Of a stretch of DNA of 64,000 bases, positions 24,167 through 55,862 are shown in pieces. How positions within the stretch are numbered: the stretch's first letter is position 1; every line of letters begins with the position of its first letter. Under the pieces are notes generated by a model. The model did no database searches, had not been told where the DNA came from, and saw nothing but the letters and a program-made list of their open reading frames with translations. The DNA lies in contig JAZONF010000009.1 of NCBI GenBank assembly GCA_045654365.1, forward strand, positions 45,345 to 109,344, given 5' to 3'. Source of the DNA: Christensenellaceae bacterium. Its GTDB lineage: Bacteria > Bacillota > Clostridia > Christensenellales > Borkfalkiaceae. The position numbers were made by a program, and so were the translations under genes.

Positions 24167-24696
24167 CGGAATTTAAGGGAACGACGATATGTGCCGTTAA
24201 AAGAGATGGGAAAACGGCAATCGCAGGTGACGGACAAGTTACCATGTCACAGTCTATAATATTTAAAAACAACGCAGTAAAAGTTAGAAGAATTCACGGA
24301 GGTAAGGTGTTATTCGGTTTTGCTGGTGCAGTGTCGGACGCTTTTGCCCTTTCTGAAAGATTTGAGGAAATGTTAAATAAATATTCTGGAAATCTTATGC
24401 GCAGTGCCGTTGAACTTGCGGAACTTTGGAGAAGCGATAAAATGAGAAAACTTGAGGCAATGATGATTACCGCCGATAAGGATACTCTTTTAATCGTTTC
24501 AGGTACTGGTGAAGTTATTGAGCCTGAAGAGGGCGTATGTGCTATAGGTAGCGGTGGAAATTACGCCTTAGCAGCAGCAAGAGCGTTAATACAAGAAACA
24601 AACTATTCAGCAGAAGAGATTGCAAAAAAGGCATTGCATATAGCAAGTGAAATTTGCGTGTTTACAAACGACCATATTACTTGTGAGGTTTTATAA
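24163..24696 (+). CDS. hslV: ATP-dependent protease subunit HslV (ClpQ)
   Basis: N-terminal ...GTTICAVKRDG... (catalytic Thr) and GSGGNYALAAARAL. Confidence 0.92.
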   Translation: MTEFKGTTICAVKRDGKTAIAGDGQVTMSQSIIFKNNAVKVRRIHGGKVLFGFAGAVSDAFALSERFEEMLNKYSGNLMRSAVELAELWRSDKMRKLEAMMITADKDTLLIVSGTGEVIEPEEGVCAIGSGGNYALAAARALIQETNYSAEEIAKKALHIASEICVFTNDHITCEVL

Positions 24697-24706
24697 GGAG
24701 AGTAAA

Positions 24707-26014
24707 ATGAATTTATCACCTAAACAAATAGTCGCCCAATTAGACAAATATATAATTGGACAAAAGAGTGCAAAAAAGGCCGTTGCAATAGCACTTCGTA
24801 ACCGTTATAGGAGAAGTATGCTTACCTTAACGGAGATGGAGGAAATAACTCCTAAAAATATCATTATGAAAGGACCAACCGGTGTTGGTAAAACGGAAAT
24901 TGCAAGAAGGCTTGCTAAATTAGTGGGTGCGCCTTTTATTAAGGTGGAGGCAACAAAATATACTGAGGTTGGCTACGTTGGACGTGACGTTGAGTCAATG
25001 ATTAGAGATTTGGTAGAGTGCTCCGTTAGGTTAGTAAAAGAAGAGCGTTTTAAGAAGGTAACTGAAAAAGCAGGTGTTATAGTTGATAAAAAGCTTGCGT
25101 CTATTGTTGCTGGTGTTAGAAAGGCGGATAGAGGGGAAACACCAGAGCCCATTTTTGAGCAGAATATTTTGGAAGGCTTAAAAAAGGGCTATTACGATAA
25201 CGAACTTATAGAAGTTGAACTTGCTGACGTAGCTAAACCTATGGAGTTAATTCCCGGTGGTGCGGAAATTAGCATAGGCAATATATTTGGCGATTTAATG
25301 CCTAAAAAACGTAAAAAAAGAAAACTCCCCGTAAAAGAGGCGAGAAAACTTTTGCTTGAAGAAGAGGCGGATAAATTAATAGATAAAGACTCTGTTAATG
25401 AAGAGGCGATTAGAAGGGCAGAGCAAGAGGGTATAATCTTTATCGACGAAATTGATAAAATTGCCGCTAAAGGTGCTAACAGTAGCGGACAAGACGTTTC
25501 AAGAGAAGGTGTTCAAAGAGATATTCTTCCTATAGTTGAAGGCTCAACGGTTATGACTAAGTACGGGGCAATTAAAACGGATTATATTTTATTTATTGCG
25601 GCGGGGGCATTCCACGTTTCAAAGGTTAGCGATTTAATCCCAGAACTTCAAGGTAGATTTCCTATTTTAGTGGAACTCAACAGTTTATCAAAGCAAGACT
25701 TTATCGATATTTTAACCACACCGCAAAATGCAATAACTTTGCAATACGCAACTTTGCTTAAGGTTGATGGCGTAGAATTAAAGTTTACCGACGAGGCTAT
25801 TGAAGAGATTGCTACTCTTGCTGAAAGTATGAACGCAACGAGTGAAGATATTGGTGCAAGACGACTTCATACCGTTATGGAAAACCTTTTAGAGGACGTT
25901 AGTTTCGAGGCGGACGGAGAAAAAGCGAAAGAGGTTGTTATCGATAAAAAATACGTTGAGAATAAGTTCGGAAAAGACTTAACTAAAAAAGATTTCAAAA
26001 AATATATTCTTTAA
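24707..26014 (+). CDS. hslU: ATP-dependent protease ATPase subunit HslU (ClpY)
   Basis: MNLSPKQIVAQLDKYIIGQ..., Walker A GPTGVGKTEIARRLA, IIFIDEIDKI, SRQ/ sensor regions. ATG 24707 follows GGAGAG. The ORF-track extension from 24647 lies inside hslV. Confidence 0.93.
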   Translation: MNLSPKQIVAQLDKYIIGQKSAKKAVAIALRNRYRRSMLTLTEMEEITPKNIIMKGPTGVGKTEIARRLAKLVGAPFIKVEATKYTEVGYVGRDVESMIRDLVECSVRLVKEERFKKVTEKAGVIVDKKLASIVAGVRKADRGETPEPIFEQNILEGLKKGYYDNELIEVELADVAKPMELIPGGAEISIGNIFGDLMPKKRKKRKLPVKEARKLLLEEEADKLIDKDSVNEEAIRRAEQEGIIFIDEIDKIAAKGANSSGQDVSREGVQRDILPIVEGSTVMTKYGAIKTDYILFIAAGAFHVSKVSDLIPELQGRFPILVELNSLSKQDFIDILTTPQNAITLQYATLLKVDGVELKFTDEAIEEIATLAESMNATSEDIGARRLHTVMENLLEDVSFEADGEKAKEVVIDKKYVENKFGKDLTKKDFKKYIL

Positions 26015-26026
26015 GGAAAAACGGAT

Positions 26027-27280
26027 ATGATTAATATACCAAAAGGAACAAAAGACGTATTACCAAAGGATAGTTATAAGTGGCAGTATATTGAAAAGGT
26101 GGCAAGAGAAACTGCAAAGCAGTTTGCCGTTTCGGAAATTAGAACTCCAACTTTTGAACACACTGAGGTTTTTTTGAGGGGCGTTGGCGAAACGACAGAT
26201 ATTGTTAATAAAGAAATGTATACATTCTTGGATAAAGGCGATAGAAGTATTACCTTAAAACCCGAGGGTACTGCAGGGGTTGCAAGAGCGTTTGTAGAAA
26301 ACGGATTGTATTCAGGTGCTCTTCCTTGTAAACTTTTCTACATAACGCCATGTTTTAGATATGAACGTCCACAAGCGGGTAGACTTAGAGAGTTTCATCA
26401 ATTCGGAGTGGAAATTTTAGGTAGTTCTTCTCCCGTTACTGATGCCGAAACCATAATCTTAGCAAAAACCTTTTTAGATAATTTAGGGGCTAAAAACGTT
26501 ACGTTATACTTAAACAGTATAGGTTGTCCTGATTGTAGGAAAAAGTACGGAGAGGCGTTAAAACAGTATTTAAGCGATAATTTTGATAATCTATGCCCAC
26601 TTTGTAAAGATAGGTTTTCTAAAAATCCTATGAGGGTTTTAGACTGTAAAAATGAAGATTGTAAGGAGTTAACAAAAAATGCTCCAAGCATTTTAGATTA
26701 TATTTGCGAGGACTGTTCTAACCACTTCAATGCCGTTCAAAATTTACTACAAATATCTAACGTGGAGTTCAAGATTAACGCTAATATCGTTAGAGGGCTT
26801 GATTATTACACAAAGACGGTGTTTGAATTTGTTTCGGAAAATATCGGGGCACAAGGTACGGTTTGCGGTGGCGGAAGATACGACAGATTAGTATCGGAAT
26901 TTGGTGGACCAAACGTTCCCGGTATCGGTTTTGCAACGGGAATTGAAAGACTTTTATTGCTTTTAGAAAATACGGGAGTGGAAATTCCAAACGACAATAA
27001 AGTTAAAATCTACTTTGCACCTATGGGCGAAAAAGAGGCGGAAAAAGCGTTTGAACTTACCACTATGTTAAGAAAAGAGGGAATTATTTCTGAAACCGAC
27101 CATATGGGGAGAGGGATAAAGGCTCAATTCAAGTACGCAGATAAAATAGGTGCAGAATTTGTTGCAGTTATTGGTTCTGATGAACTTGAAAAGGGCGTTT
27201 TAACGGTAAAAAATATGAAAGACGGCGTTTCAGAAATTGTTAGTTTTTCTGACCTTACTTCATACATTAAGAAAAGATAA
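26027..27280 (+). CDS. hisS: histidine--tRNA ligase
   Basis: Class II aaRS motifs (FRYERPQAGRLREFHQ, GGGRYD, GFATGIERL). Only 12 nt from the hslU stop, so there is no leader. Confidence 0.93.
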   Translation: MINIPKGTKDVLPKDSYKWQYIEKVARETAKQFAVSEIRTPTFEHTEVFLRGVGETTDIVNKEMYTFLDKGDRSITLKPEGTAGVARAFVENGLYSGALPCKLFYITPCFRYERPQAGRLREFHQFGVEILGSSSPVTDAETIILAKTFLDNLGAKNVTLYLNSIGCPDCRKKYGEALKQYLSDNFDNLCPLCKDRFSKNPMRVLDCKNEDCKELTKNAPSILDYICEDCSNHFNAVQNLLQISNVEFKINANIVRGLDYYTKTVFEFVSENIGAQGTVCGGGRYDRLVSEFGGPNVPGIGFATGIERLLLLLENTGVEIPNDNKVKIYFAPMGEKEAEKAFELTTMLRKEGIISETDHMGRGIKAQFKYADKIGAEFVAVIGSDELEKGVLTVKNMKDGVSEIVSFSDLTSYIKKR

Positions 27281-46854: not shown

Positions 46855-47055
46855 ATGGTTGCTTTATATATTATTTTATCGATAATAGGGGTAGCGTTTT
46901 TCGTGTGTTCGGGGATAGTTTGCGGTAGAATTTGCGCTACTATTATTAGAGATAAAAACCCAGATATGAACGAAGTTTTATGGTTTTGGTACGGATTTTT
47001 ATGTCAATGGATAGCAGTTTTATCAACTTCCGTTATAAAACCTAAAAATAAATAA
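46855..47055 (+). CDS. 66-aa two-TM membrane protein, unknown function
   Basis: AAGGAG RBS (46843-46848). Two hydrophobic helices separated by IIRDKNPDMNE. Confidence 0.5.
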   Translation: MVALYIILSIIGVAFFVCSGIVCGRICATIIRDKNPDMNEVLWFWYGFLCQWIAVLSTSVIKPKNK

Positions 47056-47064
47056 ATTATTTAT

Positions 47065-47093
47065 TTGACAATTTGTTTTTTTAATGATAAAAT
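47065..47093 (+). promoter_or_regulatory. sigma-A promoter (TTGACA-17-TAAAAT) driving the T-box leader
   Basis: TTGACA 47065-47070, 17-nt spacer, TAAAAT 47088-47093. Confidence 0.6.
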
Positions 47094-47099
47094 AAATCA

Positions 47100-47359
47100 A
47101 AGCGTTGATGAAGAGGCGTTTCTGCCGTAACCTTTTTAGAGAGTCGGTGTTTGGTGCAAATCGATAAGGGGTGCAGGCTCGTGTAACTTCGGAGCAGAAA
47201 GGAAGAAAGCCTAGAGTTGGTGATTAGAACCTTTCCGTGTATGCTACGATAGTGCAGAGGAATTGATAGATTCCGTAGAGTGGCGGTTTTTCGCAATTTG
47301 AGTGGTACCGCGGGCAGATTTTACCCGTCTCAAAGTAAATGCTTTGGGGCGGTTTTTTT
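47100..47359 (+). promoter_or_regulatory. T-box riboswitch leader (tRNA-sensing transcription attenuator), apparent specifier GUA (Val)
   Basis: Stem I base GAAG 47110-13 / CTTC 47187-90. AG bay AGAGAG 47138-43. Distal hairpin 47144-64 with a GGTGCAA loop. GTA-A at 47183-86 sits just 5' of the closing helix. Stem II 47197-202 / 47230-35. Stem III 47259-63 / 47270-74. T-box sequence AATTTGAGTGGTACCGCG 47295-312. Antiterminator with 7-nt bulge TGGTACC. A competing terminator is present. Confidence 0.88.
47324..47359 (+). terminator. T-box expression-platform terminator
   Basis: CCGTCTCAAAG (47325-35) pairs with CTTTGGGGCGG (47342-52), 11 bp including 2 G-U pairs, followed by T7. Its 5' arm is shared with the antiterminator 3' arms. 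Confidence 0.85.
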
Positions 47360-47376
47360 ATACCATAGGAGTTATT

Positions 47377-49662
47377 ATGGAGTTACTTGATTTAAAAATT
47401 AAGGAAATGGCGGAGCGTATAAGGGAGCTTCGTGAGATTGAGGGAAAAACTCAAGAGGAAATGGCTAAAAAGACGGACGTTTCTTTGGAAGAATACGTTT
47501 TGTGTGAAGAGGGTAAAAGTGACCTTAATTTTGCCTTTATTTACCGTTGCGCAAACGCACTTGGGGTAAACGTTACCGATATAATCGAGGGTTTTTCACC
47601 TAAACTTACTTCTTACACCGTTACGAGAAAGGGTAAAGGTCAAGAGATAGCAAACGCCCACGGTATGACTTATTATAACCTTGCTTATGCTTTCCAAAAT
47701 CGTATTGCTGAGCCTTTATACGTTAAAACCGTTTACGACCCTGAGGCGGAGAGAAAACCTATCGAGTGCACTACCCACGCTGGGCAGGAAATAGACATAG
47801 TAGTTTCCGGCAAACTTATGGTTCAAGTAGGAAAACATAGAGAAACACTTAACGCTGGTGATAGTATTTATTACGATAGTAGCACGCCACACGGCATGAT
47901 TGCAGTTGGTGGTGAAGATTGTGTGTTTTACGCAATAGTATTAAACCCATCTGGTGAGCCTATCCCAGACCTTGAGGGTGAAAGTGCAGTTGCTGGTAAA
48001 TCTATTAAAGCCGTTGCTAAGGATAGAGGGGATAGAATATATAAAAAGTACGTTGACGTTAAAGAGGACGAAAACGGTTATCCCTTAAAAATTAAATTTA
48101 AAAATACCGATAAGTTCAACTTTGCTTTCGACCTTGTTGACGCTATTGCTGAGCGTGAGCCTGATAAACTTGCAATGTTGCATGTTTCCAAAGACAAAAC
48201 GGAAAGAAGATTTACCTTTTCCGATATAAAAAAGGAATCAAATAGGTGCGCAAACTACTTTAAGTCGATAGGTGTTAAAAAGGGTGATAAAGTTCTATTA
48301 GTATTAAAAAGGCATTATCAATTTTGGCCTATTATGATGGGTTTAAACAAAATCGGCGCAATAGCAATATTAGCGTCTAACCAACTTCAGGAACACGATT
48401 TTGAGTATAGGTTTAAGTCCGCCGGTGTATCTACCGTAATTTGTACTGCCGACGGAGAGACTTATCGTCAAGCGGAACTCGCTATGGCTAAATACGGAAA
48501 GATGAAGCGCAAAATTTCCGTTAACGGCGAAATTTCAGGTTGGAGAAATTTTGACGAAGAGTATAAAATGTATAGTACTCATTTTGAAAGGACGGAAGAT
48601 ACCGCTTGCGGTAACGACCCACTTTTAATGTTTTTTACTTCTGGAACTTCTGGCTACCCCAAGATGGCAATGCATAACCATAAATATCCTTTAGGGCATT
48701 TCCACACAGCAAAATATTGGCACTCGGTTGATACTAACGGTTTGCATTTTACCATTTCTGATACCGGTTGGGCAAAGTCAATGTGGGGAAAACTCTATGG
48801 ACAATGGCTTGCGGAAGGCGCAATTTTCGTTTACGATTTCGATAGGTTTGATGCAGGGGATATTCTTCCTATGTTTGCTAAACATAAGATTACTTCTTTC
48901 TGTGCTCCACCTACTATGCTTAGAATGATGATTAAGCAAGATTTATCTAAATACGATTTATCCTCCGTTAAGCATATGACTACTGCTGGAGAAGCGTTAA
49001 ATCCCGAAGTTTATCGTCAGTTTGAAAAATTAACGGGACTTCAAATACACGAGGGTTTTGGTCAATCGGAAAGTACTATGATTTTAGGAAATATGATTGG
49101 CGCACCTCACAAGATTGGCTCTATGGGTAAACCTGCACCTATTTACGACGTTTCTATCGTAGATGCAGATTGTAAACCCGTTCCCGTAGGCGAGGTTGGT
49201 GAAATCGTTGTTAACGTATCTAAAGGTGCACCTTGCGGTTTGTTTACGGGTTATTATAACGACGAGGAAAAGACTAAAGAAGTTTGGCACGACGGATTTT
49301 ATCATACAGGCGATACCGCTTGGATGGACGAGGACGGATATTATTGGTACGTTGGTAGGGTGGACGACGTTATTAAATCGTCAGGCTACCGCATAGGACC
49401 TTTTGAAATTGAAAGCGTTATTATGGAACTTCCGTACGTTTTAGAGTGTGGCGTTTCGGCTGCGCCCGACGAAGTTCGTGGACAAGTTGTTAAAGCAAGT
49501 ATCGTTTTAGTTAAAGGTACTGAGCCTACTGAAGAACTTAAAAAGGATATTCAAAAATACGTTAAAGAAAGGACTGCTCCTTATAAGTATCCAAGAATCG
49601 TTGTGTTTAGAGATGAATTGCCTAAAACCACGAGTGGTAAAATTCAAAGAAACAAATTATAA
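47377..49662 (+). CDS. fusion protein: XRE-family HTH + cupin domain + medium-chain acyl-CoA-synthetase-type adenylate-forming enzyme
   Basis: ATG 47377 follows AGGAG. HTH (KTQEEMAKKTDVSLEEYVLCEEGK), cupin (HAGQEIDIVVSGKLMVQVG...GDSIYYDSSTPHGM), ANL motifs FFTSGTSGYPK, YHTGDTAW, GRVDDVIKSSGYRIGPFEIES, PKTTSGKIQRNKL. The ORF-track 5' extension from 47302 covers the T-box terminator and is rejected. Confidence 0.85.
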   Translation: MELLDLKIKEMAERIRELREIEGKTQEEMAKKTDVSLEEYVLCEEGKSDLNFAFIYRCANALGVNVTDIIEGFSPKLTSYTVTRKGKGQEIANAHGMTYYNLAYAFQNRIAEPLYVKTVYDPEAERKPIECTTHAGQEIDIVVSGKLMVQVGKHRETLNAGDSIYYDSSTPHGMIAVGGEDCVFYAIVLNPSGEPIPDLEGESAVAGKSIKAVAKDRGDRIYKKYVDVKEDENGYPLKIKFKNTDKFNFAFDLVDAIAEREPDKLAMLHVSKDKTERRFTFSDIKKESNRCANYFKSIGVKKGDKVLLVLKRHYQFWPIMMGLNKIGAIAILASNQLQEHDFEYRFKSAGVSTVICTADGETYRQAELAMAKYGKMKRKISVNGEISGWRNFDEEYKMYSTHFERTEDTACGNDPLLMFFTSGTSGYPKMAMHNHKYPLGHFHTAKYWHSVDTNGLHFTISDTGWAKSMWGKLYGQWLAEGAIFVYDFDRFDAGDILPMFAKHKITSFCAPPTMLRMMIKQDLSKYDLSSVKHMTTAGEALNPEVYRQFEKLTGLQIHEGFGQSESTMILGNMIGAPHKIGSMGKPAPIYDVSIVDADCKPVPVGEVGEIVVNVSKGAPCGLFTGYYNDEEKTKEVWHDGFYHTGDTAWMDEDGYYWYVGRVDDVIKSSGYRIGPFEIESVIMELPYVLECGVSAAPDEVRGQVVKASIVLVKGTEPTEELKKDIQKYVKERTAPYKYPRIVVFRDELPKTTSGKIQRNKL

Positions 49663-49672
49663 TTTAATTAAT

Positions 49673-49711
49673 AAAAAACCTCTTGAAACGTTTGGTTTCG
49701 AGAGGTTTTTA
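49673..49711. terminator. bidirectional rho-independent terminator between convergent genes
   Basis: AACCTCTTGAAAC (49677-89) pairs with GTTTCGAGAGGTT (49695-707). Flanked by an A run and a T run. Confidence 0.8.
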
Positions 49712-50534: not shown

Positions 50535-50614
50535 AGTTTCCGTTATTAAAGTTTAACTTTATTAAACTTTTTGTTAAAAATGCCTAAACTAAGTAAAAAT
50601 CCGAGGTGGAGATT

Positions 50615-51151
50615 ATGAAAATAGGTGAAAAGATAAAAAATTTACGACTGTTTTGTGAACTTACGCAAGAGGAACTTGCCGATAGGTGCGAACTAACTAA
50701 AGGATATATTTCTCAACTTGAAAACGATTTAACCAGTCCGTCTATTGCAACTCTTATAGATATTCTTTCGGCGCTACGAACGGACTTGAAGGAGTTTTTT
50801 TCCGACGTTGGTACGGAGGATAAGATTAGTTTTAATAAAAACGAGTTTATTGAAAAACAAGCAGACGGGTACGTTATAAATTGGCTTGCGCCAAACGGTC
50901 AAAAAAACACAATGGAGCCTATACATCTAAAACTTGATGCGGGAGCAAGTACGGACGAAGATATTCCGCACGAGGGGGAAGAGTTTGGCTACGTTATTAA
51001 GGGCGAAATAGCCGTGGTGCTTGGAAAAAGAAAGGTTAAAGTAAAAAAGGGCGAAAGTTTTTATTTTACTTCCAAATCAGTACATAAAATAATCAACGTT
51101 TCTAAGTCGGAAGCGGAAGTGGTATGGGTATCGTCCCCACCATCTTTTTAA
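50615..51151 (+). CDS. XRE-family HTH + cupin transcriptional regulator (PuuR-like)
   Basis: IKNLRLFCELTQEELADRCELTKGYISQLEN HTH. C-terminal cupin (HEGEEFGYVIKGEIAVVLG...GESFYF). ATG 50615 follows GAGGTGGA. Confidence 0.8.
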   Translation: MKIGEKIKNLRLFCELTQEELADRCELTKGYISQLENDLTSPSIATLIDILSALRTDLKEFFSDVGTEDKISFNKNEFIEKQADGYVINWLAPNGQKNTMEPIHLKLDAGASTDEDIPHEGEEFGYVIKGEIAVVLGKRKVKVKKGESFYFTSKSVHKIINVSKSEAEVVWVSSPPSF

Positions 51152-51168
51152 TGAAAGGAGAGGAAATT

Positions 51169-52683
51169 ATGGCAGATTATACTAATGAAAAAATAATAGA
51201 ATTGGTTGGTATTAACCGTACTTTTGACGACGGTGTGGTAGCCGTTGACAACTTTAATTTTTACGTACGTAGGGGGGAATTCGTAACCTTTTTAGGGCCT
51301 TCTGGTTGTGGTAAAACTACAACTCTTCGTATGATAGCAGGTTTTGATAAACCAACGGAGGGTAAAATTTTGCTTAACGGAAAGGATATAACAAACCTTC
51401 CGCCCAACCAACGTCCGGTAAATACCGTTTTCCAAAGGTATGCACTCTTTCCGCACCTTAACGTTTATGAAAATATAGCGTTTGGATTAAAACTTAGAAA
51501 GTACAAGGTAACTTATCAAGATGAAAATGGGAAAACCTTTAGTAAGGTAGAGAAACTTTCTAAAAAAGAAATTGATAAAAAGGTGGAAAAAGTTCTTCAT
51601 ATGGTTGACCTTGAGGGGTTTGAAAAAAGAAGTGTTTCCACGCTTTCGGGCGGTCAACAACAAAGGGTTGCTATTGCAAGGGCACTTGTTAACGAGCCGG
51701 AAATTTTACTTCTTGATGAACCTTTGGGTGCACTTGACCTTAAGATGAGAAAGGATATGCAGTTAGAGTTAAAAGAGATGCATAAAAAACTTGGCATAAC
51801 TTTTATCTACGTAACGCACGATCAGGAAGAGGCTCTTACTATGAGTGATACTATTTTAGTTATGAAGGACGGAGTTATTCAACAAATCGGTACGCCTACC
51901 GATATTTATAACGAGCCTAAAAACACCTTCGTTGCAAACTTTATAGGTGAAAGCAATATTTTCTCCGGCACTATGGTAGGTAAGAAAAAGGTTAAGTTTA
52001 TAGGAGCATCCTTTGACTGTGTTGACGATTTCCCTAAAAATGAAAAGGTAGATATCGTAGTTCGTCCTGAGGACGTTGCTATCGTTTCAGCAGAAGAGGG
52101 GCAGGCCACTGGTAAAATCATTAGTTCTATATTTAAGGGCGTGCATTACGAGATGGTAATGAAGGTTGGCAAGAACGAGGTAGTTATTCAGTCTACCGTG
52201 GAGCGAAAGGTTGGAGAAACAGTTTCTATCCGCATTGAGCCCGACAATATTCATATCATGGAAAAAGAGTTTTCTTCTAATAAGTACGATGGATATATAA
52301 CTAAAAAGAATACGGTTGTATTTGGTGACGGAGAGTTTGAGTGTGACGTTACTCAACTTTATCCCGGTTCTATTTTAGACGAAGAGGGATATTTAATTAC
52401 CGGTGATGGAGAAAAAATAGACCTTACCGACGTTGACGTTAACGTTGAGGTTGGCTTAAAAGATATTGAAATTTCCGACGACGCAGAAGAAGGTGGCGCA
52501 ATCGGTAATATAGTTTCTATAATCTATAAAGGAGACCACTATCAAGTTATAGTTAGGACGGACGAAGAGGAAGAAGATTACGTTTTAGATACTGAATATA
52601 CTTGGAACGAAAACGATAGAGTTTCCGTTATTATTCCTAAAGAAAAAATTAAACTTTCCTTAAAGCAGGAGATTAAAAGATGA
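51169..52683 (+). CDS. potA: spermidine/putrescine-type ABC transporter ATPase, extended form with second C-terminal TOBE-like domain
   Basis: GPSGCGKTTTLRMIAG, LSGGQQQRVAIARAL, LLLDEPLGALD. A first TOBE-like segment ends near ...IRIEPDNIHIM, then an extra roughly 130 aa with a second IYKGDHYQVIV...VSVIIPKEKI segment. Confidence 0.85.
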   Translation: MADYTNEKIIELVGINRTFDDGVVAVDNFNFYVRRGEFVTFLGPSGCGKTTTLRMIAGFDKPTEGKILLNGKDITNLPPNQRPVNTVFQRYALFPHLNVYENIAFGLKLRKYKVTYQDENGKTFSKVEKLSKKEIDKKVEKVLHMVDLEGFEKRSVSTLSGGQQQRVAIARALVNEPEILLLDEPLGALDLKMRKDMQLELKEMHKKLGITFIYVTHDQEEALTMSDTILVMKDGVIQQIGTPTDIYNEPKNTFVANFIGESNIFSGTMVGKKKVKFIGASFDCVDDFPKNEKVDIVVRPEDVAIVSAEEGQATGKIISSIFKGVHYEMVMKVGKNEVVIQSTVERKVGETVSIRIEPDNIHIMEKEFSSNKYDGYITKKNTVVFGDGEFECDVTQLYPGSILDEEGYLITGDGEKIDLTDVDVNVEVGLKDIEISDDAEEGGAIGNIVSIIYKGDHYQVIVRTDEEEEDYVLDTEYTWNENDRVSVIIPKEKIKLSLKQEIKR

Positions 52684-53540
52684 TTAAAGGAAAGATTATT
52701 GCTAAAACGCCGTTAGAAAAAAAGTTTAAATTAAACGGCAAAATAGGTTTTTCAAGAAAGCAACTTTGTATTCCTTACGGGTTATTTTTACTTCTTTTTG
52801 TTGCTCTTCCCTTATTACTTGTTGTTTATTATGCTTTTACGGGGGAAGATGGAAGTTTTGGTTTTGCAAATTTTATTGCTTTTTTTGGCGATACGACTAA
52901 ACTTTCTACCTTATTTATAAGTATATTAGTTTCTCTTGCCGTTACCGCTATATGTTTATTGATTGCTTATCCCGTTGCTTATATTCTTTCTAGAATGAAA
53001 GGCAAGTTTGCGCTTATATGTTTACTTTTATTCGTAACGCCTATGTGGATAAACTTCGTTTTGCGTGCAATGGCAATGAAGGAACTTTTATCACTTGTTG
53101 GTGTTCCTCTTGGTAACTTTGCAAGTTTAATCGGGCTTACCTATGACTTTTTGCCCTTTATGATTTTGCCTATATATTCAACGCTTATAAAAATGGATAA
53201 GAGTTTGGAAGAGGCGGCTTTAGACCTTGGCGCAAACAAGGTTAAGGTTTTTACTGATATTACTATTCCGCTTTCAATGCCCGGGATTATAAGTGGGGCA
53301 ATGATGGTTTTTCTTCCCGTAATGAGTTGTTACGTAGTTACCGATACCTTTAGTGGAAGCACGGGCTTTACCGTTATTGGTAAACTTATCGCTTGGTGTT
53401 TCTTAGGGGAGGGCGGTACGTTATCCGACGTTCATGGAGGTGCAACCATTTCTCTCGTTATGCTTATAATTTTATTCGTAACGATGATTGCTACAGGCGG
53501 ATTTAAAAGTGAAAATAGCGTTAGGGGGACTAATTTATAA
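52680..53540 (+). CDS. potB: polyamine ABC transporter permease
   Basis: Six-TM binding-protein-dependent permease with EAA-type loop (LEEAALDLGANKVKVFTDITIP). Confidence 0.85.
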   Translation: MIKGKIIAKTPLEKKFKLNGKIGFSRKQLCIPYGLFLLLFVALPLLLVVYYAFTGEDGSFGFANFIAFFGDTTKLSTLFISILVSLAVTAICLLIAYPVAYILSRMKGKFALICLLLFVTPMWINFVLRAMAMKELLSLVGVPLGNFASLIGLTYDFLPFMILPIYSTLIKMDKSLEEAALDLGANKVKVFTDITIPLSMPGIISGAMMVFLPVMSCYVVTDTFSGSTGFTVIGKLIAWCFLGEGGTLSDVHGGATISLVMLIILFVTMIATGGFKSENSVRGTNL

Positions 53541-54337
53541 TGAAAAAGTTTTTATCAGTTTGTTATATCTTATTAGTTCTCGCCTTTGTATATATTCCTA
53601 TATTTTTACTTATTTTTTACAGTTTTAATAAAGGTAAGGCGATAGGCAACTTTGAAGGTTTTTCGCTCGTGTGGTACGGAAAACTTGGCGAGATAAAAGA
53701 CGTTGTGGTTAACACCGTTGTTCTTGCGTTAGTTTCTGCAACGGTTGCTACCGTATTAGGTACTCTCGGTGCGATAGGAATTTTTTATAACAAAGGTAGG
53801 CTTGGTAAATCTATAAACGGTTTATCACAAATACCCGTAGTTAATTCTGAGGTTGTAACGGCTTGTGCGCTCGTTATGTTGTTTATTGCACTTGGTCTTG
53901 CGCACCGTTCTATGTTTGGTTTGTATATTGGACATATTATCCTATGTACACCTTTTGTAGTATTATCCGTTATACCCAAACTAAAACAAATGGACGGCAG
54001 TTTATATGAGGCTGCTTTAGATCTTGGTGCAACACCTACTCAAGCATTGTTTAAGGTTATTTTACCGGAAATTTTACCAGGAATTTTATCTGGTTTTATG
54101 CTTGCGATTACTCTTTCGCTTGACGATTATATTATAACGGCAACGCTTTCGCCACTTGATTTTGACACCATAAGTACCGCCGTATATAAATCCATTGCCT
54201 TAACTACGGATAAAGCGAGCGAAAGAATCCCCGTTTATCGTGCACTAACTACTATAATATTCTTACTCACCGTTTTAGCGGTGGTATTGATGAACCTTTC
54301 TTCAAAGAAGAAAAACCAAGAAAAAAGGGGTGCTTAG
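53540..54337 (+). CDS. potC: polyamine ABC transporter permease
   Basis: Six-TM permease with EAA loop (LYEAALDLGATPTQALFKVILP). Confidence 0.85.
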   Translation: MKKFLSVCYILLVLAFVYIPIFLLIFYSFNKGKAIGNFEGFSLVWYGKLGEIKDVVVNTVVLALVSATVATVLGTLGAIGIFYNKGRLGKSINGLSQIPVVNSEVVTACALVMLFIALGLAHRSMFGLYIGHIILCTPFVVLSVIPKLKQMDGSLYEAALDLGATPTQALFKVILPEILPGILSGFMLAITLSLDDYIITATLSPLDFDTISTAVYKSIALTTDKASERIPVYRALTTIIFLLTVLAVVLMNLSSKKKNQEKRGA

Positions 54338-54338
54338 T

Positions 54339-55862
54339 ATGAAAATTTTAAGAAGAGCGACCTCATTGTTTCTTGCAGTTTTATTTAGTATAGCCTTGTT
54401 TTGTTCCAATGGAATATCTTTGGTTAAGGCGGAGGAAAAAGTCGTAACTGTCTTTTCCGTTGAGGATTATATTCACGAGGCTGAGGACGATAGTGAAGAA
54501 GGTGTATTAGATGTTTTTGAAAGAGAAACGGGTATAAAAGTAAACTATCTTACTTTTGCAACCAACGAGGATATGTATAACGAATTATCTAAAGACCCTT
54601 ATGCTTGCGACCTTCTATGTCCTTCCGAGTATATGATAATGAAACTTATGGAAGAGGATATGATTCGTTCCTTCGACACTCCATATAACTTTAAAGAATA
54701 CGGCTCGCCCTATATTAAAGACGTATTTAAGGGGCTTAAAATAGGCGAGGGTGAAAATGTTCGTCCATTTATGAGTGAAGACGAAGAAACTTCTTATGCA
54801 GTCGGTTATATGTGGGGAACGGTAGGTCTTATTTATAATACTGCTCCTAAAGCGGGTGGGGAAATTACTGCTAAAGATTTATCGAGCTGGAGCAATATTT
54901 GGACGAATTTTACTAAAAAGGTTACTATTAAAGATAGCATTAGGGATTCATATTTTATAGCCCTTGCTTACGTTTATCAGGACGAATTGCTTTCTGCAAA
55001 GGAAGAATATTTAAGCGGTGGTGACGCTATTAAATACAACCAAACCTTAACAGAAATCTTTAACCGTACCGACAAAGAGAGTGTAAGAAAGGTGGAAGAG
55101 GCTCTATTAAACCTAAAGAATAATCTTTACGGATTTGAAGTAGATGCTGGTAAAAACGACGTTTTGACTGGTAAAATAAACGTTAACGTTGCTTGGAGTG
55201 GTGACGCAGTTTGTTCTATTGAAGAGGCTCTTTTTGACTTAGACGGTAACCTAAAGGACGAGCCGTTATATCTTGGATATGCAGTTCCTGAAGAGGGTTC
55301 TAATATTTGGTTTGACGGATACGTTATGAATAAAAACGCCAATTACGATAACGCAATAAAATTTCTTGATTTTATTGCAAGACCTGACGTTGCGGTGCTC
55401 AATATGGACTACACTGGCTATACGAGTTGTGTTGCTGGGGAAGAGGTGTTTGAATACGTTTTAGATTCTTACGATTCTGATGAGGGTGTTAAAGAATACG
55501 ACTTAAAGTATTTCTTTGACCCAACTCACGAGGGAGATGATTACGTAGTTAACGTAGAAGAATTATATCTTTCTATGTTTGAGGCACAATATCCAACGGA
55601 AGAAATTATTAATCGTTGTGCCGTTATGCAAAATTTTTCGGGAGAGGACCTTGAAAGGGTTAACGAGATGTGGAAAAAGGTTAAACTTATTACCCTTTCA
55701 ACGGAAACTATTATTCTAATTCTTCTAATTGCTCTGTTGGTTATTGCTTTTGCGTTGGTTGTAAAGTATAAAGAGTGGGTTTTTGAAAAGTTGGAAAAAA
55801 TATTCCCAAAAAGAAGAGAAAAGAGTAAATTAAAAGTAATAAAAGTAGAAAAAATAAAATAG
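54339..55862 (+). CDS. potD: polyamine-type substrate-binding protein, enlarged, with C-terminal TM anchor
   Basis: PotD-like core (VFERETGIKVNYLTFATNEDMYNEL, CDLLCPSEYM). N-terminal signal sequence. C-terminal hydrophobic helix TIILILLIALLVIAFALVV followed by a Lys/Arg-rich tail. Confidence 0.75.
   Translation: MKILRRATSLFLAVLFSIALFCSNGISLVKAEEKVVTVFSVEDYIHEAEDDSEEGVLDVFERETGIKVNYLTFATNEDMYNELSKDPYACDLLCPSEYMIMKLMEEDMIRSFDTPYNFKEYGSPYIKDVFKGLKIGEGENVRPFMSEDEETSYAVGYMWGTVGLIYNTAPKAGGEITAKDLSSWSNIWTNFTKKVTIKDSIRDSYFIALAYVYQDELLSAKEEYLSGGDAIKYNQTLTEIFNRTDKESVRKVEEALLNLKNNLYGFEVDAGKNDVLTGKINVNVAWSGDAVCSIEEALFDLDGNLKDEPLYLGYAVPEEGSNIWFDGYVMNKNANYDNAIKFLDFIARPDVAVLNMDYTGYTSCVAGEEVFEYVLDSYDSDEGVKEYDLKYFFDPTHEGDDYVVNVEELYLSMFEAQYPTEEIINRCAVMQNFSGEDLERVNEMWKKVKLITLSTETIILILLIALLVIAFALVVKYKEWVFEKLEKIFPKRREKSKLKVIKVEKIK

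Follow-up and report, generated by a model that had tools for sequence, protein, structure and literature searches.

A valine T-box leader ahead of a putative isobutyrate:CoA ligase fused to a regulator-like module in Clostridia

We analysed a stretch of 64,000 nucleotides (nt) from a Christensenellaceae bacterium (GenBank assembly GCA_045654365.1, contig JAZONF010000009.1, positions 45,345 to 109,344 of the forward strand), called the window below. It holds only one T-box core, and this belongs to a transcriptional T-box leader of 280 nt that stands ahead of a gene for a 761-residue protein, in which a helix-turn-helix (HTH) and a cupin domain are fused to an acyl-adenylating ligase. We consider it likely that this leader, read as valine-specific, controls a coenzyme A (CoA) ligase for isobutyrate, and that the isobutyryl-CoA formed would feed a reductive carboxylation leading to valine. 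An earlier note, made from the letters of the window alone, had proposed the same leader, the valine specifier and the same route to valine; it is referred to where our results bear on it.

The leader is a transcriptional T-box

The Rfam model of T-box leaders, RF00230, matched the RNA along its full length, as the earlier note had anticipated, and the score fell under the gathering score of the family. At the default gathering threshold the Rfam scan of the window gave no match, and the T-box was seen with an E-value threshold. The gathering score, 93 bits, is an operational cutoff and not a structural feature, and the filing of this RNA as a T-box rests on the structural features found in it. 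Orthologous leaders straddle the cutoff, with 101.6 bits at locus L012 and 81.1 bits at locus L031, and the T-boxes of this ligase family mostly scored 78-87 bits (8 of the 10 loci scanned). Sub-threshold T-boxes include those at 47096-47335 of the window, L031:3015-3254 and L031:5650-5891. The parts of the leader and its control signals, all on the plus strand, were placed by the sequence and by the alignment to the covariance model (CM):

47065-47093, sigma-70-type promoter: TTGACA (47065-70), 17 nt, TG-extended TAAAAT (47088-93)
47096-47335, T-box leader, RF00230: 87.2 bits, E-value 1.4e-19, model positions 1-219 of 219
47102-47195, Stem I, with base pairs 47102-03/47194-95
47106-11 (TGATGA) and 47191-96 (GGAGCA), K-turn strands of Stem I, from sequence and CM
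47110-13 (GAAG) with 47187-90 (CTTC), register-fixing helix of Stem I; 100% paired, 3 of 4 pairs covary
47138-43, AG bay AGAGAG; AGAGA is nearly invariant in the orthologue alignment
47144-48/47160-64, distal hairpin of Stem I; all 5 pairs covary, and the loop contains GGTGCAA
47179-47186, 3' side of the specifier loop, UCGUGUAA, with GUA at 47183-85 and the purine A at 47186 in the CM alignment
47197-47235, Stem II: GAAAGG (47197-202) with CCTTTC (47230-35), plus an upper helix
47236-47256, Stem IIA/B pseudoknot: IIA 47236-38/47246-48, IIB 47242-44/47254-56
47259-47274, extra hairpin GGAAT/ATTCC (47259-63/47270-74), an insertion relative to the Rfam consensus in the CM alignment
47283-47294, Stem III according to the CM: GCGG/TCGC (47283-86/47291-94); 98.8% paired, 4 of 4 pairs covary
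47295-47334, T-box sequence and antiterminator: helix A1 47297-302/47329-34, helix A2 47310-14/47324-28
47295-312, conserved T-box sequence, AATTTGAGTGGTACCGCG
47303-09, 7-nt bulge UGGUACC, aligned by the CM as TGGTACC; UGGU is the part that pairs with A73-CCA
47325-47359, intrinsic terminator: stem 47325-52 (12 pairs, 6 of them GC), T7 at 47353-59
47367-47371, ribosome-binding site AGGAG, 5 nt ahead of the ATG at 47377

The coordinates that the earlier note had given for the promoter, Stem I with its K-turn, AG bay and distal hairpin, Stem II, the antiterminator and the terminator (47325-35/47342-52 plus T7) agree with the sequence. Its Stem III at 47259-63/47270-74 calls for a change of label only: the hairpin exists and covaries, and the name belongs to the helix at 47283-86/47291-94, the former being the extra hairpin. 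The Stem IIA/B pseudoknot is absent from its anatomy and present in the leader.

The promoter scored 11/12 with TG ahead of the -10 hexamer, and a TTGACA/extended -10 promoter was found about 25 nt 5' of the leader in nearly all orthologues. The terminator arm at 47325-35 shares its bases with the antiterminator strand at 47324-34, so that the two structures are mutually exclusive. This terminator is present in the minimum free energy (MFE) fold of the entire leader, and its columns (287-294/308-315) were paired by RNAalifold. We also observed that AAGTTGTG lies directly 5' of the -10 hexamer in many of the valine promoters of the type-B layout described below (L018, L019, L033, L046, L054); it may be just an extended -10 (TGTG) with an A-rich spacer, or it may belong to the site of a regulator. 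Near the promoters of the orthologous leaders, no palindrome resembling a conserved operator was found.

Covariation and conservation across orthologous leaders

Full-length relatives of the cargo protein number in the thousands. When one genome was scanned for each species, at least 546 matching stretches came up, and 80 loci from about 80 species were kept. Wherever upstream DNA exists in these 80 loci, a T-box core lies about 100 nt 5' of the gene, and each of the 78 orthologous loci whose contig includes Stem I has a T-box. These 78 loci made up the specifier tally, and 64 orthologous leaders made up the alignment. Folding of the single sequence by MFE was uninformative (z = -1.17), and support for the structure was therefore taken from covariation. 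RNAalifold on the 64 leaders gave 46 pairs, and compensatory changes were seen in 26 of these. The antiterminator-state structure, including the IIA/B pseudoknot, was written out explicitly and tested on the same alignment; it was paired in 96.2% of cells, against 36-49% in controls with slid partners, and changes on both sides were found in 32 of its 49 base pairs. The covariation score was 0.401, as compared with 0.06-0.14 in the controls, and none of 500 shuffles reached the observed values.

The basal helix of Stem II was paired in 100% of cases with all six pairs covarying, the AU to GC change being seen in 10-29 sequences per pair, and the three pairs of the upper helix covaried as well. 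Pairing was 99.5% in IIA and 92.7% in IIB, the pseudoknot helix, where two pairs covaried; in the extra hairpin it was 99.1%, with five of five pairs covarying. The antiterminator helices A1 and A2 were 98-100% paired but almost invariant, and hence contributed no covariation evidence. In this region GAGTGGTACC was invariant in 77 of 77 leaders, and GAGUGGUACC was likewise invariant across the orthologous loci. The GGTG of the distal loop of Stem I was nearly invariant in the alignment. Beside the specifier, the CM aligned AGGCGUU and UCG against the consensus AaaAGUA and GAA, with three non-canonical pairs above the specifier loop of the window leader; the consensus of the class at the S-turn position is GAAGAGGGC...GTTTGTAG in the 64 leaders. 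The S-turn motif is common in T-boxes and not universal, and its missing consensus was treated as a peculiarity of this class. In all, this is a transcriptional T-box of the ordinary kind that shows the quirks of its class, namely the extra hairpin, the lack of the S-turn consensus and Rfam scores near the threshold.

The specifier and its codon register

Read from the CM alignment, the specifier is the valine codon GUA, followed by a purine; immediately after GUA-A comes the CTTC strand of the basal helix of Stem I. The triplet was GUA in 76 of the 78 loci and GUC in the other two (L045 and L056), both being valine codons, and the next base was always a purine. Among the 64 leaders, G47183 and T47184 were invariant, A47185 was conserved in at least 90%, and the UGGU of the bulge was invariant across the orthologues. 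The usage table of TBDB lists GUA (0.61) and GUC (0.29) as the two commonest valine specifiers, and UGU is never used there as a cysteine specifier. Both neighbouring registers were considered and rejected. The -1 register (NGU) gives UGU, GGU, AGU and CGU across species, which are non-synonymous codons for Cys, Gly, Ser and Arg, and it would need a tRNA with U73, whereas UGGU requires A73; the +1 register gives the stop codons UAA or UAG. The GUA register was considered settled because it is the only one that stays synonymous across species.

A gene for tRNA-Val(CAC) in the related locus L029 has A73, with the end ...CUCC-A-CCA, in agreement with pairing of the bulge to tRNA-Val. The earlier note had expected such a discriminator base, a GUA specifier followed by a purine, conservation of that triplet in orthologous loci and covariation of the stems, and the last three were borne out by the tallies given above, while for the discriminator base the tRNA-Val(CAC) of L029 is in line with the expectation.

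The cargo is a predicted ligase of the Macs/MbcS clade

The cargo gene, on the plus strand, was annotated with Pfam, NCBIfam, the structure PDB 3ETC and an AlphaFold2 (AF2) model of the N-terminal module:

47377-49662, cargo gene, 761 residues, start codon ATG at 47377
47413-47589 (residues 13-71), HTH_XRE domain, Pfam
47770-47937 (residues 132-187), cupin_2 domain, Pfam
residues about 191-235, disordered linker of about 45 residues in the AF2 model
48142-49257 (residues 256-627), AMP-binding domain, Pfam, 210.5 bits
49405-49641 (residues 677-755), AMP-binding_C domain, Pfam, 76.5 bits

The ligase motifs TSGTSGYPK and YHTGD and the C-terminal SGKIQR are present, and the ligase part aligned end-to-end with PDB 3ETC, the enzyme MacsMa of Methanosarcina acetivorans, with 600.8 bits. 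In this alignment the pocket is of the Macs type, with Gly at the position of Trp416 of Acs, the alternative Trp at 259, and KYW and FGQ conserved. The roles of these residues, that is, of the gatekeeper Trp of Acs and of the alternative Trp, and the preference of MacsMa for 2-methylbutyrate have been described (PMC10455477). Since Gly replaces the gatekeeper and the alternative Trp is kept, the ligase appears not to be of the acetate type. The catalytic motifs of the ligase, its C-terminal domain and its pocket have all remained intact, with about 78% conservation across families. A proposed alignment of position 466 with an acyl-pocket residue of Acs was not confirmed, and no argument is built on it.

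The best NCBIfam model was MbcS, with 438.6 bits, and the second-best was PRK04319, of the acetate-CoA ligase family; some homologues are named acetyl-CoA synthetase in their source records. Judged by its score, the cargo is a member of a clade related to MbcS, not an orthologue. MbcS activates 2-methylbutyrate and isobutyrate with Michaelis constants (KM) below 10 µM, rejects acetate and uses isovalerate poorly (PMC10026030). From the sequence, the cargo most likely belongs to the Macs/MbcS clade as a CoA ligase for short, alpha-branched carboxylates, and its substrate is most likely isobutyrate, a preference suggested by the valine T-box, the isoleucine-linked paralogue and the operon partners described next.

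Gene context and paralogues in related species

Clustering of all open reading frames (ORFs) of the 80 loci separated two layouts. In type A, the valine T-box and its ligase gene stand alone, as in the window, in the syntenic locus L081 (94% identical) and in many metagenome-assembled genomes labelled Christensenellaceae. In type B, found under the labels Acutalibacteraceae, Oscillospiraceae, 'Eubacteriales' and some Christensenella/Catabacter, the valine-linked ligase gene is followed on the same strand by a gene for a P-loop protein, VorB, the beta and gamma subunits of a 2-oxoacid:ferredoxin oxidoreductase (OFOR), and IlvE. The VorB match scored 536.7 bits (cutoff 399) and the IlvE match 484 bits (cutoff 307). 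Among the 63 loci that extend 2.5 kb or more downstream, the P-loop gene was found in 41 and vorB in 38. The P-loop protein is MinD/ParA/CbiA-like, has 220 residues and always lies between the valine-linked ligase gene and vorB (51 loci, e.g., L056:8286-8948); it had no NCBIfam match. The gap of about 250 nt after its gene may encode a small delta subunit of the ferredoxin type.

Of the 66 loci that extend 3 kb or more upstream, 41 showed a tandem paralogue of the fusion directly ahead of the valine-linked gene, with its own promoter and its own T-box (L012:3090-5647; e.g., L031:3015-5593). The specifier of this T-box was AUC, for isoleucine, in 41 of 41 cases, together with UGGU. The valine and isoleucine leaders are about 70% identical, which indicates that leader and gene were duplicated together and that the specifier was switched afterwards. 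A third T-box, with the leucine specifier CUC and 105-128 bits, precedes a leuA-like gene just past ilvE (L012:12731-12964, L078:11669-11905, L052:12718-12959, L039:11644-11889), so that units for Ile, Val and Leu stand side by side in type-B loci. In one genome the fusion is present three times in tandem, the additional copy lying upstream of the isoleucine-linked gene (L031:491-2947); no T-box was detected ahead of it in the DNA available there.

The valine-linked and isoleucine-linked ligases fall into cleanly separated clades, with 79% identity within the valine-linked group, 76% within the isoleucine-linked group and 66% between them. Only eighteen positions show fixed differences between the groups; five are in the ligase (N324H, A466G, M469L, M568L and G571A) and the remaining 13 in the HTH-cupin module. 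At the five ligase positions MacsMa has the residue of the isoleucine clade at three and that of the valine clade at none.

Proposed mechanism and pathway

According to the established mechanism of T-boxes (reviewed in PMC7583486), the GUA of Stem I would be presented to the anticodon of tRNA-Val. If the tRNA is uncharged, its free A73-CCA end would pair with UGGU, the antiterminator at 47297-334 would be stabilised, and RNA polymerase would read into the ligase gene; with charged tRNA-Val, the terminator at 47325-59 would form instead. The ligase would then convert isobutyrate into isobutyryl-CoA, a VorB-type 2-oxoisovalerate:ferredoxin oxidoreductase would carboxylate this reductively to 2-oxoisovalerate, and IlvE would convert the oxoacid into valine. 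We infer that the enzymes of these later steps are encoded in the source genome too. In this manner, starvation for valine would lead the cell to salvage a fermentation acid plentiful in the gut and rumen. The reductive direction is favoured because the system is expected to be induced by valine starvation, and oxidative decarboxylation would consume the precursor of valine. The gene partners in type-B loci, together with the isoleucine and leucine T-box units beside them, strongly support the proposal that isobutyrate is activated for reductive carboxylation. The physiological part of the earlier note fared well in this analysis: its short branched-chain acid CoA ligase finds support in the match to MacsMa, the MbcS model and the Macs-type pocket, and its reductive carboxylation to 2-oxoisovalerate in the VorB/OFOR/IlvE strings, the isoleucine-linked paralogue and the leucine T-box of the related loci.

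Alternative explanations

Several observations weigh against a valine T-box on an isobutyrate ligase that feeds valine synthesis. The leader is 6 bits short of the RF00230 gathering score (87.2 vs 93 bits), and this class has lost the S-turn consensus (AGUA/GAA) next to the specifier. The window contains no tRNA gene, and a gene for tRNA-Val(UAC) was not encountered, the one of L029 being tRNA-Val(CAC). The vor genes, ilvE and the isoleucine-linked paralogue are absent within the 64-kb window, and L081 likewise has the ligase gene alone. The MbcS model has an equivalog cutoff of 850 bits, against the 438.6 bits obtained, and the substrate is transferred from MbcS and MacsMa by analogy. Finally, activation of isobutyrate leaves the function of the fused HTH-cupin module unexplained. 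The low score, the three non-canonical pairs and the absent S-turn consensus could indicate that the T-box has decayed, is non-functional or is read in a different codon register; the strong covariation and the invariant T-box core across the orthologous class, with members such as L012 that pass the threshold, argue against decay, and a shifted register meets the problems that only GUA is synonymous, that UGU never occurs in cysteine T-boxes and that cysteine would need UGGA in the bulge. Decay or another register is essentially excluded.

It is also conceivable that the main use of isobutyryl-CoA is to prime the synthesis of branched-chain fatty acids, the T-box sensing the loss of the valine-derived primer. 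MbcS, the best NCBIfam model, has exactly such a role in Staphylococcus aureus, and in the window the ligase gene stands alone, without a neighbouring oxidoreductase or transaminase gene. In most related species, however, the gene is co-operonic with a VorB-type OFOR and IlvE, between isoleucine and leucine T-boxes; this Ile/Val/Leu arrangement is a layout for amino-acid supply, and T-boxes read tRNA charging, a signal of demand for the amino acid itself. We consider the primer role improbable. Activation of another acid, such as acetate, propionate, butyrate or some other small acid, with an indirect link to valine, would fit the second rank of PRK04319 and the homologues named acetyl-CoA synthetase, but the gatekeeper Trp of Acs is replaced by Gly with the alternative Trp of Macs present, both of the nearest characterised relatives reject acetate, and paralogues under valine and isoleucine T-boxes call for two different branched substrates; this is more improbable still. 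A further view holds that the protein is primarily a transcription factor, whose ligase domain or acyl-adenylate would act as a sensor or generator of a co-repressor, in a BirA-like manner. The complete PuuR-type one-component regulator in the N-terminal 190 residues, with a fold that matches 1Y9Q, the maintenance of the fusion in thousands of proteins and the location of 13 of the 18 discriminating residues in the HTH-cupin module are in line with this. Nevertheless, catalytic motifs, C-terminal domain and Macs pocket have stayed intact, with about 78% conservation, indicating that enzyme activity is under selection, and no conserved operator-like palindrome was evident near the promoters. 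A primary role as a regulator therefore has a low probability, on a par with that of the fatty-acid primer, and it is compatible with, not exclusive of, an enzymatic function.

The fused HTH-cupin module

The N-terminal 190 residues form a complete PuuR-type HTH-cupin regulator, a full-length homologue of a stand-alone regulator encoded at 50606-51148 (26% identical over 187 residues). The unit of that PuuR-like regulator lies 1 kb downstream of the ligase gene and holds the nearest homologue of the module in the window; the regulator gene is followed by potA-, potB-, potC- and potD-like ATP-binding cassette (ABC) transporter genes (50606-55862). In the AF2 model the HTH and the cupin barrel were confident and the overall confidence was moderate, with a predicted local distance difference test (pLDDT) of 68.8. 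The best fold matches were the HTH_3 regulator 1Y9Q of Vibrio cholerae and HppE, the fold hits being generic HTH-cupins, and no solved structure close in sequence to the module was found. The residues H134-x3-E138...H172 are invariant in the module and common to the stand-alone PuuR-like protein, and they resemble the 2-His-1-carboxylate metal site of HppE-type cupins.

The fusion of HTH, cupin and ligase is kept in thousands of proteins. By analogy with BirA, the protein might be a bifunctional enzyme and transcription factor through which the salvage of isoacids is gated twice, a tentative and rather unlikely extension of the proposal. If so, the T-box would report demand, as uncharged tRNA-Val, and the HTH-cupin module would sense supply or product, its ligand being isobutyrate, the adenylate or CoA ester of this acid, or valine, and would act on DNA as BirA does. 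The 13 paralogue-specific residues in the module would in that case mark differences in ligand or operator specificity between the valine and isoleucine systems.

Transcription unit and neighbouring genes

A hairpin that marks the end of the ligase gene was found past its stop codon:

49674-49710, bidirectional, terminator hairpin of 16 pairs, flanked by runs of A and T, 12 nt past the ligase stop

The gene ygjV, on the opposite strand, converges on the ligase gene. Because of this terminator and the converging ygjV, the T-box unit of the window consists of a single gene, and the HTH-cupin-adenylating-enzyme fusion that the earlier note had recognised, here resolved into Pfam domains, is its only cargo.

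Between nadE and the T-box promoter there is an ORF for a predicted membrane protein of 66 residues (46855-47055), without a family match. It has a promoter of perfect consensus at 46805-33 (12/12), and an ORF of 65 residues occupies the same place in the syntenic relative L081. The gene hisS (26027-27280), which the earlier note had described as having no leader, indeed has no T-box or other Rfam match upstream; it starts 13 nt past hslU (region 24647-27280) and is probably co-transcribed with it.

Significance and comparison with known systems

Assimilation of isoacids into branched-chain amino acids has been known from labelling physiology since the 1960s and is exploited in ruminant nutrition. 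As far as the literature was searched, we found no publication that ties this physiology to ligase genes or to T-box control. In the full-text literature that was searched, no description of a T-box on an acyl-CoA ligase or isoacid cargo was found, and two T-box surveys mention no such cargo (Wels 2008; TBDB paper). The specifiers of T-boxes are built-in functional labels, and here they would assign valine and isoleucine roles to two clades of paralogous fusions and tie them to a VorB-type oxidoreductase and IlvE. The fusion is very widespread and unannotated; it occurs in thousands of proteins, and among the Clostridia of gut and rumen it was found in at least 546 species-level genomes. These genes are concrete candidates for the opening step by which isoacids are assimilated into branched-chain amino acids, and they would extend the T-box regulon to the activation of carboxylates. 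Annotation based on thresholds will systematically miss this class of ligase T-boxes, most of which score just under the gathering score.

The reductive carboxylation of isobutyrate and 2-methylbutyrate to valine and isoleucine in rumen and gut anaerobes requires the enzyme set that the type-B loci encode; that physiology depends on 2-oxoisovalerate:ferredoxin oxidoreductase (VOR), whereas the window itself is without oxidoreductase genes. MacsMa shares with the cargo the alternative Trp and the Gly in place of the Trp of Acs, and it prefers a small alpha-branched acid, 2-methylbutyrate; it differs in having neither the HTH-cupin module nor a T-box, and at the discriminating positions it resembles the isoleucine-linked paralogue, not the valine-linked protein of the window. 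MbcS of S. aureus likewise takes isobutyrate and 2-methylbutyrate selectively and serves to salvage branched acids from outside the cell, but it feeds fatty-acid primers, handles both acids with one enzyme, is unfused and has no reported T-box. BirA also combines a DNA-binding domain with an adenylate-forming enzyme, a likeness by analogy only, without homology.

The transcriptional T-boxes of Bacillota, such as those of valS and the leucine T-box of ilv-leu in Bacillus subtilis, have the same parts of Stem I, Stem II, IIA/B and Stem III as the leader described here, as well as the same 14-nt T-box sequence, the UGGN bulge, the mutually exclusive terminator and antiterminator, and GUA as the commonest valine specifier. 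The window leader adds a covarying hairpin between IIA/B and Stem III and does without the S-turn consensus. In contrast to the aminoacyl-tRNA synthetase genes, biosynthetic operons and transporters found behind those T-boxes, the cargo here is a fusion of an acyl-CoA ligase with a regulator. The RNA type itself is known; what we did not find described is this cargo, a functionally informative member of the T-box regulon.

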